A stretch of DNA of 5,661 bases from Erysipelotrichaceae bacterium MTC7 (GTDB lineage: Bacteria; Bacillota_I; Bacilli_A; Erysipelotrichales; Erysipelotrichaceae). Where the stretch lies: the NCBI GenBank assembly GCA_001695645.1, contig LVZN01000031.1, positions 1-5,661 on the forward strand, read 5' to 3'. Shown here one piece after another: positions 381 through 5,564 of this stretch. The notes beneath the pieces were generated by a model that saw only the letters and a list, made by a program, of their open reading frames with translations, made no database searches and was not told the origin of the DNA. Numbering within the stretch: position 1 is the first letter of the stretch; every line of letters begins with the position of its first letter. The position numbers and the translations under genes are program-made.

Positions 381-392
381 TTTTCCTCCTGA

Positions 393-1514
393 TTATTCAC
401 TTTTGACTTCAAGGTGTTCATATTCAACTGTGATTTCTTCTATAGTTTCTAAGTACTCATTTTTATAATAAACATCAAAGCCTTTATCGGTTTCAATAAT
501 ATATGAGTTATCTTCTGTCAAAATAAAATATTCGTTTCCTTCAGGTATAGGGTAATCTGGTTGAAATGTAACTAAAGACACCATGACAATAAGGATTAAA
601 AGTAACGTGTATGATAAATTATTTAATTTAGTGCGTTTCGAATTTTCGTCAAATGATAGAATTGACCGACATCTAGTTGTAAACTCGGAGTTGCTTTCGT
701 TACCTGCAAATTCTGAAATCAGTGGGGTTTTATTCCAAATTATATTACTATTTATTCCATAAGTTTCAGCTTTTCTATACATTTTAAACAAGAATTCTGT
801 ATAAGTTACTGAATTGTTTTCTTTCATTTTCAGAACATGCAAATCAACATCTTTCTCTAACAATTCATACGTTTGCCTTCTAATTACAAACAGTAATGGA
901 TTCCACCAATACAAAGCATATATAAATTCGATAAGTAGTTTTATTAACATGTGAAAGTGCAAAAAATGTGTTAGTTCGTGTTGTAGTATCATAGATAACT
1001 CTGCTTCAGTGTAATCATCTTTTGGAATAATGATTGTACCTTTTACAAGTCCAATAACCATCGGAGCTGGAACAAAGTTTACATAAATTACCCTTATTTT
1101 TCTTCTTTTTGGCATAAAATCAACTAGAGATGGCATTATACTCTGTGGTATTTCACTGCTAGGAAATATTGAGAATACCCTATTTGTAACATATGTTTTT
1201 CTAATTAGCTTTATTAGCTTATATGCACTTATCGTAAACCAGAAAAAGATCATTAAATCTAGTATCATATAATCCATAAGAATCTTTGTTCTCAACATTT
1301 TACTTAACAAAACTAAAACATTGGTTGATAAGAAATGCCCGATTATTGGCAATTCTATCGGAATAGCAAGTCTCAACGAAATCACAACAAAAATTATCAG
1401 TAATGGTTTTATATCTATTTGCTGATTTGCATATCTATCTTTCAACTGTTTAAGAAAATATATACTTAAACTTGAAAAAAAGATAACACTTATTGTACCC
1501 CATGTTGTAAACAT
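393..1514 (-). CDS. BlaR1/MecR1-type M56 family membrane metalloprotease (signal transducer/anti-repressor) with a short non-PBP C-terminal ectodomain
   Basis: The zinc motif HELTH (residues 179-183) is encoded at 966-980. Its context is typical of Peptidase_M56: APMVIGLVKGTIIIP...ILQHELTHFLHFH...WWNPLLF...EKDVD. Hydrophobic segments sit at the N-terminus (about residues 5-20, 36-58 and 82-97). A further TM helix spans residues 299-317 (564-620). It is followed by a 56-aa tail (396-563). The start lies 4 nt downstream of the blaI-like stop. Confidence 0.9.
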   Translation of the reverse strand: MFTTWGTISVIFFSSLSIYFLKQLKDRYANQQIDIKPLLIIFVVISLRLAIPIELPIIGHFLSTNVLVLLSKMLRTKILMDYMILDLMIFFWFTISAYKLIKLIRKTYVTNRVFSIFPSSEIPQSIMPSLVDFMPKRRKIRVIYVNFVPAPMVIGLVKGTIIIPKDDYTEAELSMILQHELTHFLHFHMLIKLLIEFIYALYWWNPLLFVIRRQTYELLEKDVDLHVLKMKENNSVTYTEFLFKMYRKAETYGINSNIIWNKTPLISEFAGNESNSEFTTRCRSILSFDENSKRTKLNNLSYTLLLILIVMVSLVTFQPDYPIPEGNEYFILTEDNSYIIETDKGFDVYYKNEYLETIEEITVEYEHLEVKSE

Positions 1515-1518
1515 ATCA

Positions 1519-1920
1519 TTACCTAGTTTTTTCTTCTCTTCTTTCCTGAATCATCTTCTCAATCTCGTTGAGCATTTCTTCCTCTGATTGGTTTGATTCA
1601 GATTTCACCAGTGCAAGTGTCATTTCGTATATTGGATTATCTTTTTTACTCTTAGGAAATAAACTTTTGAATTGATCAACAGCATACTCATCCGCAGAAA
1701 CTAATGGAGAATACTTTCTTGCGTTGGTTTTATTTACAATTGTGATAGACGATATTTCTATATATTCCTTATTAAGCAATGTCTTTAAAGTATTTTGAAC
1801 AGTAAATATACTTATTTTTTCATCATCTATCCTTGATAATATTTCTGTTGCAGTTAAGCTATCATCTTCACTCCATAATACTTTCATAATATCTAATTCT
1901 CTTCCTGTTAATCTTTTCAT
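1519..1920 (-). CDS. BlaI/MecI/CopY-family winged-helix transcriptional repressor (Penicillinase_R-like)
   Basis: The translation MKRLTGRELDIMKVLWSEDDSLTATEILSRI...FTVQNTLKTLLNKEYIE...RKYSPLVSADEYAVDQFKSLF matches the BlaI/CopY pattern of an N-terminal wHTH followed by a YsPlvs..eY core. I prefer the ATG at 1918-1920 because AGGAG (1932-1936) lies 11 nt upstream. The ORF-track start at 1941 has no Shine-Dalgarno sequence and adds only 7 residues (MLGVEYI). Confidence 0.88.
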   Translation of the reverse strand: MKRLTGRELDIMKVLWSEDDSLTATEILSRIDDEKISIFTVQNTLKTLLNKEYIEISSITIVNKTNARKYSPLVSADEYAVDQFKSLFPKSKKDNPIYEMTLALVKSESNQSEEEMLNEIEKMIQERREEKTR

Positions 1921-1998
1921 AATATACTCTACTCCTAACATTCAAAATCGTATTCAATCATAAAAAACTCTTGAACTATAACTTACCTTTACAATTAT

Positions 1999-2027
1999 AT
2001 ACTACATAGATTGCTTTAATGTGTCAA
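1999..2027 (-). promoter_or_regulatory. Candidate sigma-A promoter for the blaI-like operon
   Basis: On the minus strand a perfect -35 TTGACA (complement of 2022-2027) is followed by a 17-nt spacer and a -10 TAGTAT (complement of 1999-2004). This is about 55-75 nt upstream of the repressor start codons. Confidence 0.5.
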
Positions 2028-2202: not shown

Positions 2203-2337
2203 ATGAAAAAGAATGAATATTCAGACTTAAGGAAAAAGGGCGAAGAATATGGTAAAGATATTCGCTCATGGTATATTGGTTTTCTCGTGATATCTTTGAT
2301 TTTAGCAATTATCGTTATTGTATACTTGTTTATGTAG
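2203..2337 (+). CDS. Unannotated 44-aa tail-anchored membrane micro-protein (hypothetical)
   Basis: I translated this by hand: MKKNEYSDLRKKGEEYGKDIRSWYIGFLVISLILAIIVIVYLFM*. It has a charged N-terminal half followed by one clean TM helix of about 20 aa. A purine-rich stretch AAAAGGAGAAGAAATAGGGG (2181-2200) lies upstream. The stop is 20 nt before the next gene and downstream of the candidate promoter. It is below the size cutoff of the supplied ORF track. The Shine-Dalgarno spacing is suboptimal. Confidence 0.45.
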   Translation: MKKNEYSDLRKKGEEYGKDIRSWYIGFLVISLILAIIVIVYLFM

Positions 2338-2357: not shown

Positions 2358-2849
2358 ATGAAAATTTATAAAAAAATGCTTGTGGTACTGGTTGCTACAG
2401 TCATTGCTATGGTTGGTTTTACGAAATCAATAGATGCAGCTTCCATAGCTAGAACTGGAAAACTTGGTGGTACATTTAATACTACTTATCATTATGCGTA
2501 CAACTACAGTGCAATGATTTACTATGATGCAGGAACAGGTAGAGTTACATCCGCTGACACAATAAAAACAAGTAACAAAACTTGTGCTAGTCTCATTGGA
2601 CTAGAATATGGATGTTCGATCAACACTTCTCAAGCTTCTAAAACAATCAACTATGCTAGCGTTAAATATGTTGTTAAGGTTGATGTATATGCAAACACAG
2701 GTTGGGGCGGTGGAGTCTATGTTGGTTCACAAAATAACACAGTTACACTAAGCTCACCTGGACCAACTAGAGGTGCGGAACCGTTAGAAACGATTGAAAT
2801 TGGAGAAATGTACACTGATTTAAGATTGGTTGAAAACTTTGTAGAATAA
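2358..2849 (+). CDS. Orphan secreted protein (163 aa; predicted mature form 136 aa)
   Basis: The signal peptide is MKIYKK / MLVVLVATVIAMVGF / TKSIDA|AS. The mature part is rich in Thr, Ser, Asn, Tyr and Gly, which suggests a beta-rich fold. It has a single Cys pair (C-x9-C, CASLIGLEYGC), a GWGGGVYVG glycine patch, and an acidic tail EPLETIEIGEMYTDLRLVENFVE. A strong terminator follows. I did not recognise a family. Confidence 0.8.
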   Translation: MKIYKKMLVVLVATVIAMVGFTKSIDAASIARTGKLGGTFNTTYHYAYNYSAMIYYDAGTGRVTSADTIKTSNKTCASLIGLEYGCSINTSQASKTINYASVKYVVKVDVYANTGWGGGVYVGSQNNTVTLSSPGPTRGAEPLETIEIGEMYTDLRLVENFVE

Positions 2850-3041: not shown

Positions 3042-3278
3042 TCATTGATCTTCATTTGTCAGATTTTCCCCAGTATGAGGCTTACCTGCCCCCAATACTT
3101 TCAATGCTTCTTTTTGCAACATTCCCATCTTATTTGATATTTTTTGTAAAGGGACTAGCTTTTCATCAATTTCGCTTAATTCTTTGTCCCATTTTACATT
3201 CGCTTCAGCTCTTTTTGCTTCAATAACACTTCTTTTTTTTATTAGTTTATCAATGTCTTTTTTGATTGTATTCATCAT
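3042..3278 (-). CDS. Small coiled-coil protein, hypothetical (78 aa)
   Basis: AAGGAGG (3283-3289) lies directly upstream of tandem ATGATG, so the second ATG at 3273-3275 may be the real start. The sequence is charged with heptad-like spacing (KKDIDKLIKKRSVIEAKRAEANVKWDKELSEIDEKL). It is the last gene of the minus-strand operon. Confidence 0.7.
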   Translation of the reverse strand: MMNTIKKDIDKLIKKRSVIEAKRAEANVKWDKELSEIDEKLVPLQKISNKMGMLQKEALKVLGAGKPHTGENLTNEDQ

Positions 3279-3285
3279 TTCCTCC

Positions 3286-4446
3286 TTATTTATAAATCAA
3301 AATAATAGAGGTGGAAGAACTTCCACCTTTGATATTTACCTTGTTAGGGGTTCTGTTTTTTTTGCACTTGCATTTTTTATTTTGTGTGACTTTTGCTTTA
3401 TCAATTGTGTTACGAATAGAATCAATAGAACTACTTTCTGTTTTTTTTACAAGGAATTCATTCCAGTCCTTACTACCATCAAGAGGATATAATTCCTTTG
3501 CATTAACTCCTTTACTAGATAATATTTCAATTGCAATACCAGCAAACTTTTTTCCAGCGTTAATTTTATTTCCCCAGTCATTATCGTAGCACACCGTAAT
3601 ACTTTCATATCCAATACGTTCTTGCACCTTCAATATCGTTTCATACCGTGTACAGCTCCCAGTTGCAAGGTAAGCGTAATCGTTCAAATCTATTCCTTTT
3701 TCTTTTTGAAGAGTCATGTAAGACAGCATATCAACTGCTCCTTCAAAACAAAGTAATTCTTTTTTTGAAGAATATGGTTTTTCATTATATGCATTTTGTC
3801 TTGGATCTACTGACATATCTACTAGCCAACCATAATTGTAATCAGACCCTTGGATTTCTAATTTAAAATTGTTTGCATCCGTACAAGAACGTATATTTAC
3901 GCAAGCAACTAAGCCTAGTTCATCTCTTCCCACAAAAGCAACAGATTTTCTACCAAACCTGTCTTGTGCCTGCTTAATAAAGTCTTGTTTGACCAATGTA
4001 ATAACGATAGTTGGATCTATTTTTCTTTTCTGAATTAAGTATGCCATTACGTTTTTACTAGATTCATCAAACGTAACATTACCAAGCAATGTTTGTGTTC
4101 GCTTTTTTTTGTAGGCTAAAGAATTAGTATCTTCTAACGTTTTCCTTGGTTTTTTTTCTATTACATCAACATCTACATTTATCCTTGGCAAACAATACTC
4201 ATAAGCTTCTTTAAAGTTCATATCAATCTCAGGGATCTCTTCCATAAATTTTAGTACGTCTCCGCCTTTATGTGTAGCCCATCTTACAAACGAGTTAGTA
4301 TCTTTATATATAGTTACTGAATCATGTTCTTCTAGTTTAGCTAGTCTTTTTGATTTATGGACAACTCTCAATCCAAATTCCTCCGCAATATCCACAATTT
4401 GTATTTGATCCTTTATTTTGTTTTTTAATTCTCTATCTATTTTCAT
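3286..4446 (-). CDS. DUF3991/Toprim domain protein (conjugative-element primase-like)
   Basis: The Toprim motifs are the Glu in LLCFEGAVDMLSY (E235, 3742-3744) and the DxD in TVCYDNDWGN (residues 288-290, 3577-3585). The central region resembles DUF3991: AYLIQKRKIDP...VAFVGRDELG...FKLEIQGSDYNYGW. The N-terminus resembles a CHC2 primase zinc-finger fold but lacks the Cys ligands. The start lies 3 nt after the stop of the upstream gene. Confidence 0.85.
   Translation of the reverse strand: MKIDRELKNKIKDQIQIVDIAEEFGLRVVHKSKRLAKLEEHDSVTIYKDTNSFVRWATHKGGDVLKFMEEIPEIDMNFKEAYEYCLPRINVDVDVIEKKPRKTLEDTNSLAYKKKRTQTLLGNVTFDESSKNVMAYLIQKRKIDPTIVITLVKQDFIKQAQDRFGRKSVAFVGRDELGLVACVNIRSCTDANNFKLEIQGSDYNYGWLVDMSVDPRQNAYNEKPYSSKKELLCFEGAVDMLSYMTLQKEKGIDLNDYAYLATGSCTRYETILKVQERIGYESITVCYDNDWGNKINAGKKFAGIAIEILSSKGVNAKELYPLDGSKDWNEFLVKKTESSSIDSIRNTIDKAKVTQNKKCKCKKNRTPNKVNIKGGSSSTSIILIYK
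3296..3328 (-). terminator. Terminator-like hairpin inside the last codons of the Toprim gene
   Basis: A perfect inverted repeat pairs AGGTGGAAG (3309-3317) with CTTCCACCT (3320-3328). On the minus strand it is followed by CTATTATTTTGATTTAT. It encodes the odd C-terminal GGSSSTS tail and sits just upstream of the RBS of the 78-aa gene. Confidence 0.4.
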
Positions 4447-4449
4447 TTG

Positions 4450-4680
4450 TTATTCCTTCTTTCCATGATTAGAATGAAATACTAGAACTGAATTTTCTTC
4501 TATTAAAGTTAGTAATCCACTTTCGTCTTCGCTTGATAATTTTATTAAGAGGGAATCAGTAAATGATTTTTGTATAGGAAAGTTTGTTCTGCTATTAACC
4601 AATAGCAGTCTCAACTCTTCAATTGAAGTTGGTTTATAAAATTGAATAAAATACTTTTCCTCTTGTGTATAAATTTTCAT
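4450..4680 (-). CDS. Small protein resembling the 'transposon-transfer assisting' (TnpW-like) family
   Basis: The 76-aa product reads MKIYTQEEKYFIQFYKPTSIEELRLLLVNS...FTDSLLIKLSSEDESG. This resembles the family pattern as I recall it (fT.EE..li.iy...sr.eli..L......e...l.ds.l.KL..m.dee). Its start overlaps the upstream stop in an ATGA overlap (4677-4680). Its position next to a DUF3991/Toprim gene is typical of Firmicutes conjugative elements. Confidence 0.55.
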   Translation of the reverse strand: MKIYTQEEKYFIQFYKPTSIEELRLLLVNSRTNFPIQKSFTDSLLIKLSSEDESGLLTLIEENSVLVFHSNHGKKE

Positions 4681-5564
4681 ACTGTGTCCTCCCCTAAATA
4701 AACATCATTATCATCAAACATGAAATCCATTGGAACTCCATTACTATCTTCATTTTTCGCTTCAACATCAAGGACATGATCACTGTCCTGGTAATTTTGC
4801 AATCTATTATTTCTTATCTCTTTGGCAGCATCAATGGTTTCTCTTACATTCCTTGATTTGATTACTTCAATTTCTTCAAGTTGTTTTTTTCGCCTTTCTT
4901 TTTCATCAAACGATACACAAGAATTAACCACTACTGAAGGTAACATCTGAAAGAGTTCTGACAAATATATGTAGAGTTGAACACACTCCTCTTCACTATG
5001 ATTCTCAAAATCTAGGAACTCGTCCACATCAGTTTTTAGAATATCTAGAAGCCCAAATTGTAAGTAATTCATCAAGTTATCCTTAAAAGATAATTGTTTA
5101 CCTTTTTCATATTCATATTGTTTAAATAGTTCAGAAATCAACTTCTCATGCCAATCTTCAGAGAAAATCGATTTTAGCTTTTGAATACGTTTTGGATCTA
5201 AATATGTTGCAATTAATGACGAAAAAACTGGCTTCTTCTTAGTATTCATTTGTGAAATATCGAATACTTTTACTGGTTTCCAAATTATTGTATTTCCCGT
5301 GCAACTGGGAACTACTGTAAGTAAACCTTTCATCCCCTTCTTAACCCATAATTCCTCTTTAAATTCTTTATCCCATGCATCTTTCGTTTTTACATTTGTT
5401 GCAGATGGCAAGTTATAAAGAATACTCGCAACATTCCACCAACTGATATCAGAAAACATTCTCATGAAACGTATATGAGTTTTTAATACCTCTTTATTTC
5501 TAACGAAGTTAGGAATCTGTCTTTTAACTTCATCTATGTATCCTATAAGTTGTTCTTCATTCAT
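4677..5564 (-). CDS. ArdC-N-like ssDNA-binding domain protein with an acidic C-terminal tail (conjugative-element protein)
   Basis: A strong RBS AGGAGGTG lies 6 nt upstream of the ATG. Residues 37-86 (5307-5456) read FSDISWWNVASILYNLPSATNVKTKDAWDKEFKEELWVKKGMKGLLTVVP. This fits the ArdC N-domain pattern YS..N..LI..Q.P.AT.V.t...W...g..VkKGekGi.i..P. No HExxH protease motif is present. Confidence 0.5.
   Translation of the reverse strand: MNEEQLIGYIDEVKRQIPNFVRNKEVLKTHIRFMRMFSDISWWNVASILYNLPSATNVKTKDAWDKEFKEELWVKKGMKGLLTVVPSCTGNTIIWKPVKVFDISQMNTKKKPVFSSLIATYLDPKRIQKLKSIFSEDWHEKLISELFKQYEYEKGKQLSFKDNLMNYLQFGLLDILKTDVDEFLDFENHSEEECVQLYIYLSELFQMLPSVVVNSCVSFDEKERRKKQLEEIEVIKSRNVRETIDAAKEIRNNRLQNYQDSDHVLDVEAKNEDSNGVPMDFMFDDNDVYLGEDTV

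Follow-up and report, generated by a model that had tools for sequence, protein, structure and literature searches.

What does a BlaR1-type protease respond to when it lacks a penicillin-binding sensor domain? This question is raised by a 5,661-bp contig of Erysipelotrichaceae bacterium MTC7 (LVZN01000031.1; G+C ~30%), which was analyzed over its whole length and is referred to here as the window. Its minus strand carries three genes in order: a blaI-like repressor gene, the gene for an M56 membrane protease, and a gene for a small secreted protein, referred to here as the partner (Table 1). Our best explanation is that the three genes form a self-contained operon of the non-canonical BlaIR type, to which CenIR of C. 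difficile also belongs; taken as a whole, this explanation is tentative and falls a little short of an even chance. Sequence comparison and structure prediction suggest that this repressor-protease switch of the BlaI/BlaR type is intact but non-canonical, with a tiny folded beta-sheet ectodomain in the position of the penicillin-binding sensor. As far as could be found, neither this mini-ectodomain nor the operon-coupled secreted family has been described previously.

The protease core was compared with that of BlaR1. Pfam Peptidase_M56 (PF05569) covered residues 76-260 of the 373-amino acid (aa) open reading frame (ORF), scoring 77.3 bits where the curated gathering score is 31 (E=1.5e-21), and sequence reading placed the motif WWNP at residues 203-206, between HELTH and EKDVD. 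Residues H179, E180, H183, E220, D224, Y238, and R281 were invariant among 55 aligned family sequences. The gluzincin residues of BlaR1 are H201, E202, H205, E242, and D246, with Y261 and R294 as stabilizing residues (PMC9834060). In a profile comparison with PDB sequences, H179/E180/H183 and E220/D224 aligned with BlaR1 H201ExxH205 and E242xxxD246, and Y238 and R281 are plausible counterparts of Tyr261 and Arg294. S. aureus BlaR1 structures were the only significant matches of the family profile in the PDB (E=3e-20). The AlphaFold2 (AF2) model of the protein had a mean predicted local distance difference test score (pLDDT) of 73 and a predicted template modeling score of 0.64, and it reproduced the helix and sheet pattern. 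Likewise, the only significant Foldseek matches of this model in the PDB were the BlaR1 entries 8exq, 8exs, 8ext, 8exp, and 8exr (E 2e-7 to 7.5e-5, probability 1.00); the next match was ZMPSTE24 at E=0.23. A preliminary description of this DNA, made from the letters alone, had claimed an intact M56 catalytic core with these motif coordinates and a BlaR1-like core and topology, and both claims held. By analogy with BlaR1, the cytoplasmic side of the protease probably works in the same way.

BlaR1 Asp210 stabilizes His205 and is reportedly near strictly conserved. The equivalent position was His188 (nucleotides [nt] 951-953) in the window protein and in relatives P0002 and P0005, and Asp in most other family members. 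HExxHxxxxH spacing is also present in M48/Ste24-type proteases, and the spacing created by His188 fits a weak M48 match of the M56 protein in Pfam (E=0.0013).

The window protein is outside the beta-lactam-sensing BlaR1/MecR1 group, as every defining test for that group failed. NCBIfam BlaR1 (NF000326) aligned residues 78-316 to model positions 105-329 of 585, with 57.4 bits against a cut-off of 400, and NCBIfam MecR1 (NF033109) gave 35.3 bits against a cut-off of 1200. Because the alignment to the BlaR1 model stops at residue 316, the window protein runs out at the point where BlaR1 continues into its sensor domain. The transpeptidase domain PF00905 had no match in the M56 protein in Pfam, and the tail had no other domain match either. 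No beta-lactamase or PBP2a gene was detected in the window with Pfam and NCBIfam, nor in the related loci inspected. A protein with neither a penicillin-binding protein (PBP) domain nor an SxxK motif cannot use acylation to sense beta-lactams, and this agrees with the preliminary description in excluding a beta-lactam sensor and in expecting a Peptidase_M56 match without a transpeptidase domain.

By homology to BlaR1, the last transmembrane (TM) helix leads outward and the tail that follows it is extracytoplasmic. This orientation is also favored because a K/R-rich segment (SKRTK) precedes the helix and an acidic segment follows it, consistent with the positive-inside rule. The helix in the AF2 model agreed with the one read earlier from the sequence (residues 299-317).

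A protein this short could be read as the product of a 3'-truncated pseudogene of full-length blaR1, and its length relative to BlaR1 (585 aa) is the single feature that would favor such a reading. However, the 59%-identical homologue was also 373 aa long, relatives at 22-26% identity were 378-380 aa long, and relatives at 59% and 20-26% identity all ended 52-70 aa past the last TM helix. At least 160 clusters were retrieved with a profile, nearly all of them 374-384 aa long and some with ~5,000 member sequences; several carried the name "M56 family metallopeptidase" and came from Lachnospiraceae or Roseburia. The same end point and a conserved tail were shared by more than 150 relatives of 365-388 aa. 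There was also no PBP-like coding remnant downstream of the gene, where a conserved, separately initiated gene begins after 12 nt. Truncation, which the preliminary description had singled out for alignment with close homologues, is excluded by the family-wide length and the conserved tail, and we give it virtually no chance of being correct.

The tail (residues 318-373, nt 396..563) consists of 56 aa, of which 16 are D/E, 3 are K, and none is R, and it has no SxxK; sequence, length, and composition were exactly as first reported. Acidic residues made up 28.6% of the tail compared to 7.9% of the remaining protein (binomial p=4e-6) or to a generic 12.5% (p=1e-3), and the acidity of the window tail is therefore beyond chance. 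The AF2 model divided the tail into two parts. A low-confidence stretch spanned approximately residues 317-336, with pLDDT of 50 or less at residues 316-320 and 324-327. It was followed by an antiparallel beta-meander of four strands (337-342, 345-350, 353-358, and 369-372) with a mean pLDDT of 75-87 over 10-residue blocks. In this model, a ~36-residue, four-stranded beta-meander on a ~20-residue disordered acidic stalk is predicted to replace the penicillin-binding domain. The expectation of a small, beta-rich domain was thus borne out by the model.

Residues Y321, P324, N336, Y338, and I340 were invariant in 7 sequences, including relatives at 20-26% identity. The tail profile (Y..P...N.[ST]Y[IL]I...G.Y) gave the window protein 77 bits (E=9e-17); the window protein is one of the 7 sequences from which the profile was built, and independent support comes from the invariant residues in the relatives at 20-26% identity. 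An exhaustive HMMER search of 1.84 billion representatives with the tail alone returned 40 matches, and all but one were C-termini or fragments of M56 proteins. The outlier, a eukaryotic EGF-repeat protein (P0125), was rejected as a spurious match. On this sequence evidence the tail is conserved throughout a large subfamily of M56 proteins of 365-388 aa and is peculiar to it. No known domain was found for it in Pfam, NCBIfam, or PDB sequence searches, an outcome in keeping with the preliminary description, and with HMMER matches confined to one M56 subfamily, a known domain was rejected.

When the family profile (A7) was aligned with BlaR1 8exs (residues 340-374), the HMMER alignment passed the last TM helix and entered the first beta-hairpin of the sensor, pairing the family segment NSYIIKKKDGEYILH with BlaR1 NSGSFVMYSMKKDKYY. 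The mini-ectodomain might, therefore, be derived from the N-terminus of an ancestral sensor domain. On this alignment one could also propose that the tail is left over from the N-terminal beta-hairpin of an ancestral PBP/class-D sensor and senses nothing, and that the protease is constitutive or controlled from the cytoplasm. However, the pairing was not recovered by the tail-only profile, which found no BlaR1, MecR1, or OXA in the PDB (best E ~0.8-0.95, unrelated proteins) and matched just the short-tail M56 subfamily among the representatives searched. The tail core is also invariant at ~20-25% identity and confidently folded in AF2, which argues for a selected function. We consider a functionless vestige very improbable.

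The preliminary description had called the tail hyper-acidic and inferred that it probably recognizes a cationic ligand (peptide, protein, or envelope component). On this model the ectodomain would be an electrostatic sensor, for example of antimicrobial peptides or of cationic parts of the envelope. The net charge of the window tail was -13 and the family mean was -7.3, the C-terminal domain of the window partner was basic (+5), and some related loci adjoin ABC-transporter, PspA, or VanZ genes, characteristic of the response to cationic peptides or envelope stress. In contrast, net tail charge across the family ranged from -16 to +3; the closest homologue had -4, and the abundant P0110 and P0119 types had +3 and +2. 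The conserved tail positions were aromatic, hydrophobic, Pro, or Asn, and acidic residues were not among them. Much of the acidity lies in the disordered stalk and at the C-terminal end of the tail. Tail and partner charge were not correlated (Spearman rho=0.08, p=0.68), and electrostatic complementarity was rejected as a conserved principle. "Hyper-acidic" is true of the window protein and, from the sequences compared, is not a conserved property of the family. The step from acidity to a cationic ligand is weak, and we regard a cationic sensor as improbable.

The partner begins with a signal peptide (residues 1-24, cleavage after INA), followed by a variable spacer and a C-terminal mini-domain (residues 50-81, nt 138-233). 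Its C-terminus reads VYIWVYKTVNGVKYKRKMNKTNGEWIGDWIRV. The AF2 model placed residues 50-81 at pLDDT 91-95, with a long hairpin (50-58, 61-68) plus two short strands, and the last ~32 residues are confidently predicted to form a W/Y/R-rich, four-stranded beta-sheet mini-domain. R65, N68, T70, W74, and W78 were invariant among 67 partner sequences, giving the motif R..N.T...W...W, and the C-termini followed one of two related patterns, KYR..NG.LQYRRWN.T.G.WVDP.WI or W.YK..DG.LYKR.YN.T...WIGDWI. The family comprises at least 1045 clusters at 90% identity, all annotated as hypothetical. No Pfam or NCBIfam family was found for the partner, and no paper containing its motif was found in the literature searched. 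Foldseek returned nothing significant for the partner model (best E=3.6, with the weak matches mostly to single propeller or lectin blades), and a known fold was rejected for lack of a significant structural neighbor. Homology between tail and partner, as by duplication of a hairpin, was also rejected (hhalign probability 0.1%). The N-x-T tripeptide (N68 and T70 of the window partner, nt 171-179) was invariant in the 67 partners (alignment A8); it is possibly a mere turn motif, and it matches the pattern of a glycosylation sequon as well.

The partner gene was tightly linked to the protease gene. A hidden Markov model (HMM) of the partner had 28 matches among 9,140 six-frame ORFs from all loci, and 26 of these were directly downstream of M56 on the same strand; the other 2 were a frameshifted remnant downstream of M56 and an extra copy. 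When ORFs were recounted from stop to stop, the partner was downstream in ~33 of 49 family loci, including that of the closest homologue. Seen from the partner side, M56 was immediately upstream in all 7 distinct places sampled. Many M56-partner pairs overlapped by 1-4 nt or stood 1-14 nt apart. In the window, the M56 stop codon (393-395) and the partner ATG (378-380) are separated by 12 nt, with GGAGG 4 nt before the ATG. Apart from the extra copy, in L050, the partner family was seen only beside the short-tail M56 subfamily in the loci examined. The preliminary description had named both this 81-aa protein and a 163-aa protein encoded on the opposite strand as candidates for co-folding; the first choice was prescient, as the protein is the product of a conserved partner gene, and the second did not hold up, with 0 matches in related loci.

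Several loci varied in this arrangement. The extra copy in L050 (5556..5197, minus strand) is a divergent 119-aa partner-like ORF ending TKWVYAEINGQIYRRLYDITNQCWIGDRELCP, on the opposite strand ~1.4 kb upstream of the module, and was the only partner-like copy found that was not directly downstream of M56. At the locus of the closest homologue (L001 8193-8425, L002 1190-1422), the partner gene is split by a frameshift: signal peptide and spacer occupy one frame, and another encodes an intact C-terminal domain with 61% identity to that of the window. The DNA is identical in the two assemblies, and the frameshift may therefore reflect recent decay to a pseudogene or an assembly error common to both. 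The M56 ORF of L012 and L033 is instead ~35 codons longer and runs ~107-110 nt into the partner gene in a different reading frame. Family members of 467-468 aa (P0103, P0106, P0109, and P0111-P0122) are natural read-throughs from M56 into the partner; they were rejected as true domain fusions because the Met and signal peptide of the partner are retained, which indicates adjacency and not fusion. Of the Lachnospiraceae loci without a partner, L009 (8133-8234) and L021 (8113-8398) contain decayed remnants, as either a truncated signal-peptide ORF or a frameshifted domain, and for such loci recent loss is indicated over primary absence.

On the model of BlaR1/BlaI and CenIR, an event outside the cytoplasm, at the mini-ectodomain, would shift the cytoplasm-facing protease towards cleaving the BlaI-like repressor. 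Cleavage would derepress the operon itself, and hence the secreted mini-protein, plus any neighboring genes that carry its operator. Tail and partner are both placed outside the cytoplasm, since the tail follows the equivalent of the last BlaR1 TM helix and the partner has a signal peptide. Because the linkage is exclusive, the genes are translationally coupled, and the folded tail is small, the beta-meander may be a protein-docking module with the co-transcribed mini-protein as its cognate extracellular partner, either ligand or co-sensor; we hold this tentatively, at clearly less than an even chance. With a folded part of only ~36 residues, protein-protein contact is in our view favored over a small-molecule pocket. 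A ligand or co-sensor role would create an autocrine feedback loop. The more specific proposal, that beta-meander and mini-protein make up an extracellular receptor in two parts, or a ligand-receptor pair of autocrine (quorum-like) type, and gate proteolysis of the BlaI-type repressor, is rather unlikely as it stands. The evidence for the mini-protein as docking partner is circumstantial.

Alternatively, the mini-protein could be solely an output: the main regulated product, acting as an envelope-acting, adhesive, or antimicrobial effector, with the ectodomain sensing another cue such as the state of the envelope or peptidoglycan. CenIR can be cited on both sides. The target that CenI represses most strongly (500-fold) is CDR_0474, a small exported protein whose gene lies 215 bp downstream, and nothing suggests that it acts as the signal (PMC13492132). 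By analogy, a top regulon member that is a small exported protein encoded just downstream would also support the partner link. The presence of PspA, VanZ, SH3_3, or ABC-2 transporter genes, which are of the envelope-stress type, beside some loci would also suit a pure output. However, the partner of the window is co-transcribed and, in the family, often translationally coupled with the sensor gene, compared to a distance of 215 bp for cdr_0474, and this arrangement is in our view more typical of subunits. The partner family was also seen solely next to one M56 subfamily, and the ~36-residue domain suggests no alternative ligand. We regard a purely regulated output as doubtful but a serious possibility.

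Several results weigh against the docking proposal and the switch of which it is part. About one third of the family loci keep the conserved tail and have no partner in cis, which also favors an output. Charge did not covary between tail and partner, as given above. In mirror-tree and partial Mantel tests (the tail-partner co-evolution data comprise 30 natural pairs), the partner co-diverged with the whole protease, with a partial r of 0.12 for the tail (p=0.04) and 0.37 for the core; tail-specific co-evolution was rejected as too weak to count, and the mirror-tree result is one of co-inheritance only, which would also favor an output. On the cytoplasmic side, sequence reading showed that the window repressor does not retain the scissile N101-F102 dipeptide of BlaI. 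No TACAnnTGTA operator of the BlaI/CopY type was found above chance, and this canonical operator was rejected; autoregulation of the operon is therefore an assumption. Alignment of the promoter region with that of L001 likewise gave no convincing operator. The repressor itself was a constant companion of the protease: all 23 upstream ORFs taken from related loci matched Penicillinase_R, and tblastn found a repressor homologue in 42 related loci. A sigma-70-like sequence ~58 nt ahead of the blaI-like start codon is the best candidate for the operon promoter on consensus matching alone, and such sites are no more numerous in the region than expected from shuffled sequence.

Either outcome would be of interest. 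The ectodomain is tiny, folded, conserved, and tied to one small secreted protein, which makes the module a tractable entry to what non-PBP BlaR proteases sense. Should the mini-protein be the ligand, gut Firmicutes would have a protein-mediated switch of a new kind, for cell-cell or self-sensing. A receptor-ligand pair would amount to an unrecognized protein-based signaling cassette, widespread in gut Clostridia and often on mobilizable elements, and would provide the first natural ligand class identified for the ~94% of BlaR-like proteases without a penicillin-binding domain. If the mini-protein is output only, there would still be a large uncharacterized family of exported proteins under the control of a proteolytic switch.

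Table 1. Features of the operon in the 5,661-bp window, in order of transcription.
Feature	Position (nt)	Strand	Basis
Sigma-70-like promoter candidate, best for operon	1999..2027	-	TTGACA-17-TAGTAT, 10/12 consensus matches
BlaI/MecI/CopY-family winged-helix repressor, 140 aa, first operon gene	1519..1941	-	Pfam Penicillinase_R, E=6.4e-12
M56 (BlaR1-type) membrane zinc metalloprotease, 373 aa, complete	393..1514	-	Pfam, NCBIfam, PDB, AF2, Foldseek
HELTH zinc-binding motif, residues 179-183	966..980	-	Sequence reading; equivalent to BlaR1 H201ExxH205
EKDVD, residues 220-224	843..857	-	Equivalent to BlaR1 E242xxxD246, with third zinc ligand
Last TM helix, residues 293-316	567..638	-	AF2 helix; HMMER alignment to 8exs runs through helix
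Flexible acidic stalk, residues 317-336	507..566	-	AF2: low pLDDT, no secondary structure
Beta-meander mini-ectodomain (predicted), residues 337-372	399..506	-	AF2; contains invariant Y338 and I340, with N336 just before
GGAGG Shine-Dalgarno sequence of partner gene	385..389	-	Within the 12-nt M56-partner gap
Secreted partner, 81 aa	135..380	-	Partner HMM, E=5.6e-15; its motif is among the 20 HMM seeds

The subfamily occurs in gut Clostridia and Erysipelotrichaceae. A genome scan found the family chiefly in Lachnospiraceae, Butyricicoccus, Agathobaculum, and other gut Clostridia. Gut metagenomes from humans and animals contained the module in abundance, and a single relative was indexed in 233 blocks of the assembly collection. 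As a portable cassette, it is found beside different neighbors: mobile-element, ABC-transporter, or PspA/VanZ genes. One abundant relative sits between MobA/MobL relaxase and TnpV/serine-recombinase genes. Other relatives, including L001, have a divergent ABC-2 transporter operon alongside. In L081-L084 (P0216), a divergent PspA_IM30 gene occurs with a gene for a TPM-like membrane protein, and VanZ-like and SH3_3 proteins are encoded downstream. The copies adjoining PspA and VanZ genes look chromosomal, and these envelope-stress-type neighbors suggest that the output of chromosomal copies may be related to the envelope.

In the window, the remaining minus-strand genes (3042..5564) form a mobile-element backbone. 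A DUF3991/Toprim/CHC2-zinc-finger primase (3286..4446) is flanked by uncharacterized ORFs of 78, 76, and 295 aa, the latter two overlapping by 4 nt (4677-4680); a primase with such small ORFs is typical of a conjugative or mobilizable element. In PADLOC, the primase weakly matched a DnaG-like part of DRT models. Two plus-strand ORFs diverge from the operon, one of 44 aa with a single TM segment (2203..2337) and one for the 163-aa signal-peptide protein (2358..2849). Neither has a family match, and each is preceded by a 26-nt direct repeat with a ribosome-binding site (2170-2195 and 2334-2359; copies 85% identical). None of the window genes outside the module, including the 44-aa and 163-aa ORFs, was found in any related locus, and they were rejected as module members. 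The module had no match in PADLOC, no relatives in the viral contig collection, and no match by megablast against phages and plasmids; PLSDB returned matches to the M56 core only, with no partner. A defense-system, phage, or plasmid origin was rejected on these results.

How the system compares to known ones depends on which part is considered. M56 proteases of the BlaR type abound in bacteria, and few are able to sense beta-lactams. Approximately 6% of ~15,000 M56 proteins carry a transpeptidase domain and ~94% do not, and the commonest architecture is M56 with an unannotated C-terminus (Kurtz et al. 2026, PMC13492132). The absence of a PBP domain, with which the preliminary description led, is thus ordinary for the M56 family, and its novelty had been overrated. 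An adjacent, co-oriented BlaI-family repressor, by which a non-canonical BlaIR system is recognized, is present in the window by sequence. BlaR1/BlaI and MecR1/MecI of S. aureus and B. licheniformis (8EXP-8EXT) share with it the gluzincin HExxH, ExxxD, Tyr, and Arg, the fold and topology, an adjacent BlaI-family repressor, and presumed signal-dependent proteolysis of that repressor. In contrast to BlaR1 and MecR1, the window protein has no ~250-aa PBP/class-D domain, SxxK, or beta-lactamase/PBP2a neighbor, the repressor has no N-F dipeptide, and the gene order is repressor, then protease.

"Atypical BlaIR" pairs without a sensor have been reported as M. tuberculosis BlaR (Rv1845c), M. abscessus BlaIR, and P. 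aeruginosa PvmSR (bioRxiv 10.64898/2026.08.03.742534). They also combine an M56 protein without a beta-lactam sensor with a BlaI-like regulator and have roles beyond classical beta-lactam induction; as far as the available text goes, they differ in being reported without a sensor domain, with no mention of a co-encoded secreted partner, and in other phyla. The logic that an autocrine reading would imply is that of ImmR/ImmA with RapI-PhrI on ICEBs1, one of the mobile-element peptide quorum systems, in which a repressor is inactivated by a dedicated metalloprotease and the element encodes a secreted signal. ImmA is cytoplasmic and of another protease family, and its signal is a re-imported pentapeptide that acts through RapI. 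The window system would instead use a folded ~55-aa protein on the ectodomain of a membrane protease, and no homology is known between the two.

The closest description is that of CenIR, whose protease CenR also lacks a transpeptidase domain (Kurtz, Muh, Weiss & Ellermeier, J Bacteriol 2026, PMC13492132). CenIR is essential in C. difficile, and efforts to find its activating signal failed (PMC13492132). Both systems have a BlaI-family repressor, an M56 protease without a transpeptidase domain, and a Firmicute host. Both also have a short extracellular C-terminus of no known domain and a small Sec-exported protein encoded just downstream, although CenR tail and CDR_0474 are likened to the window proteins by their published description. 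The CenR tail is ~125 aa and mostly disordered, whereas the window tail is 56 aa with a predicted folded beta-meander that is conserved in its family. CDR_0474 is a 136-aa protein unique to C. difficile and its gene stands apart; in contrast, the 81-aa partner of the window is encoded in the same operon, with its own Shine-Dalgarno sequence, and belongs to the large family described above.

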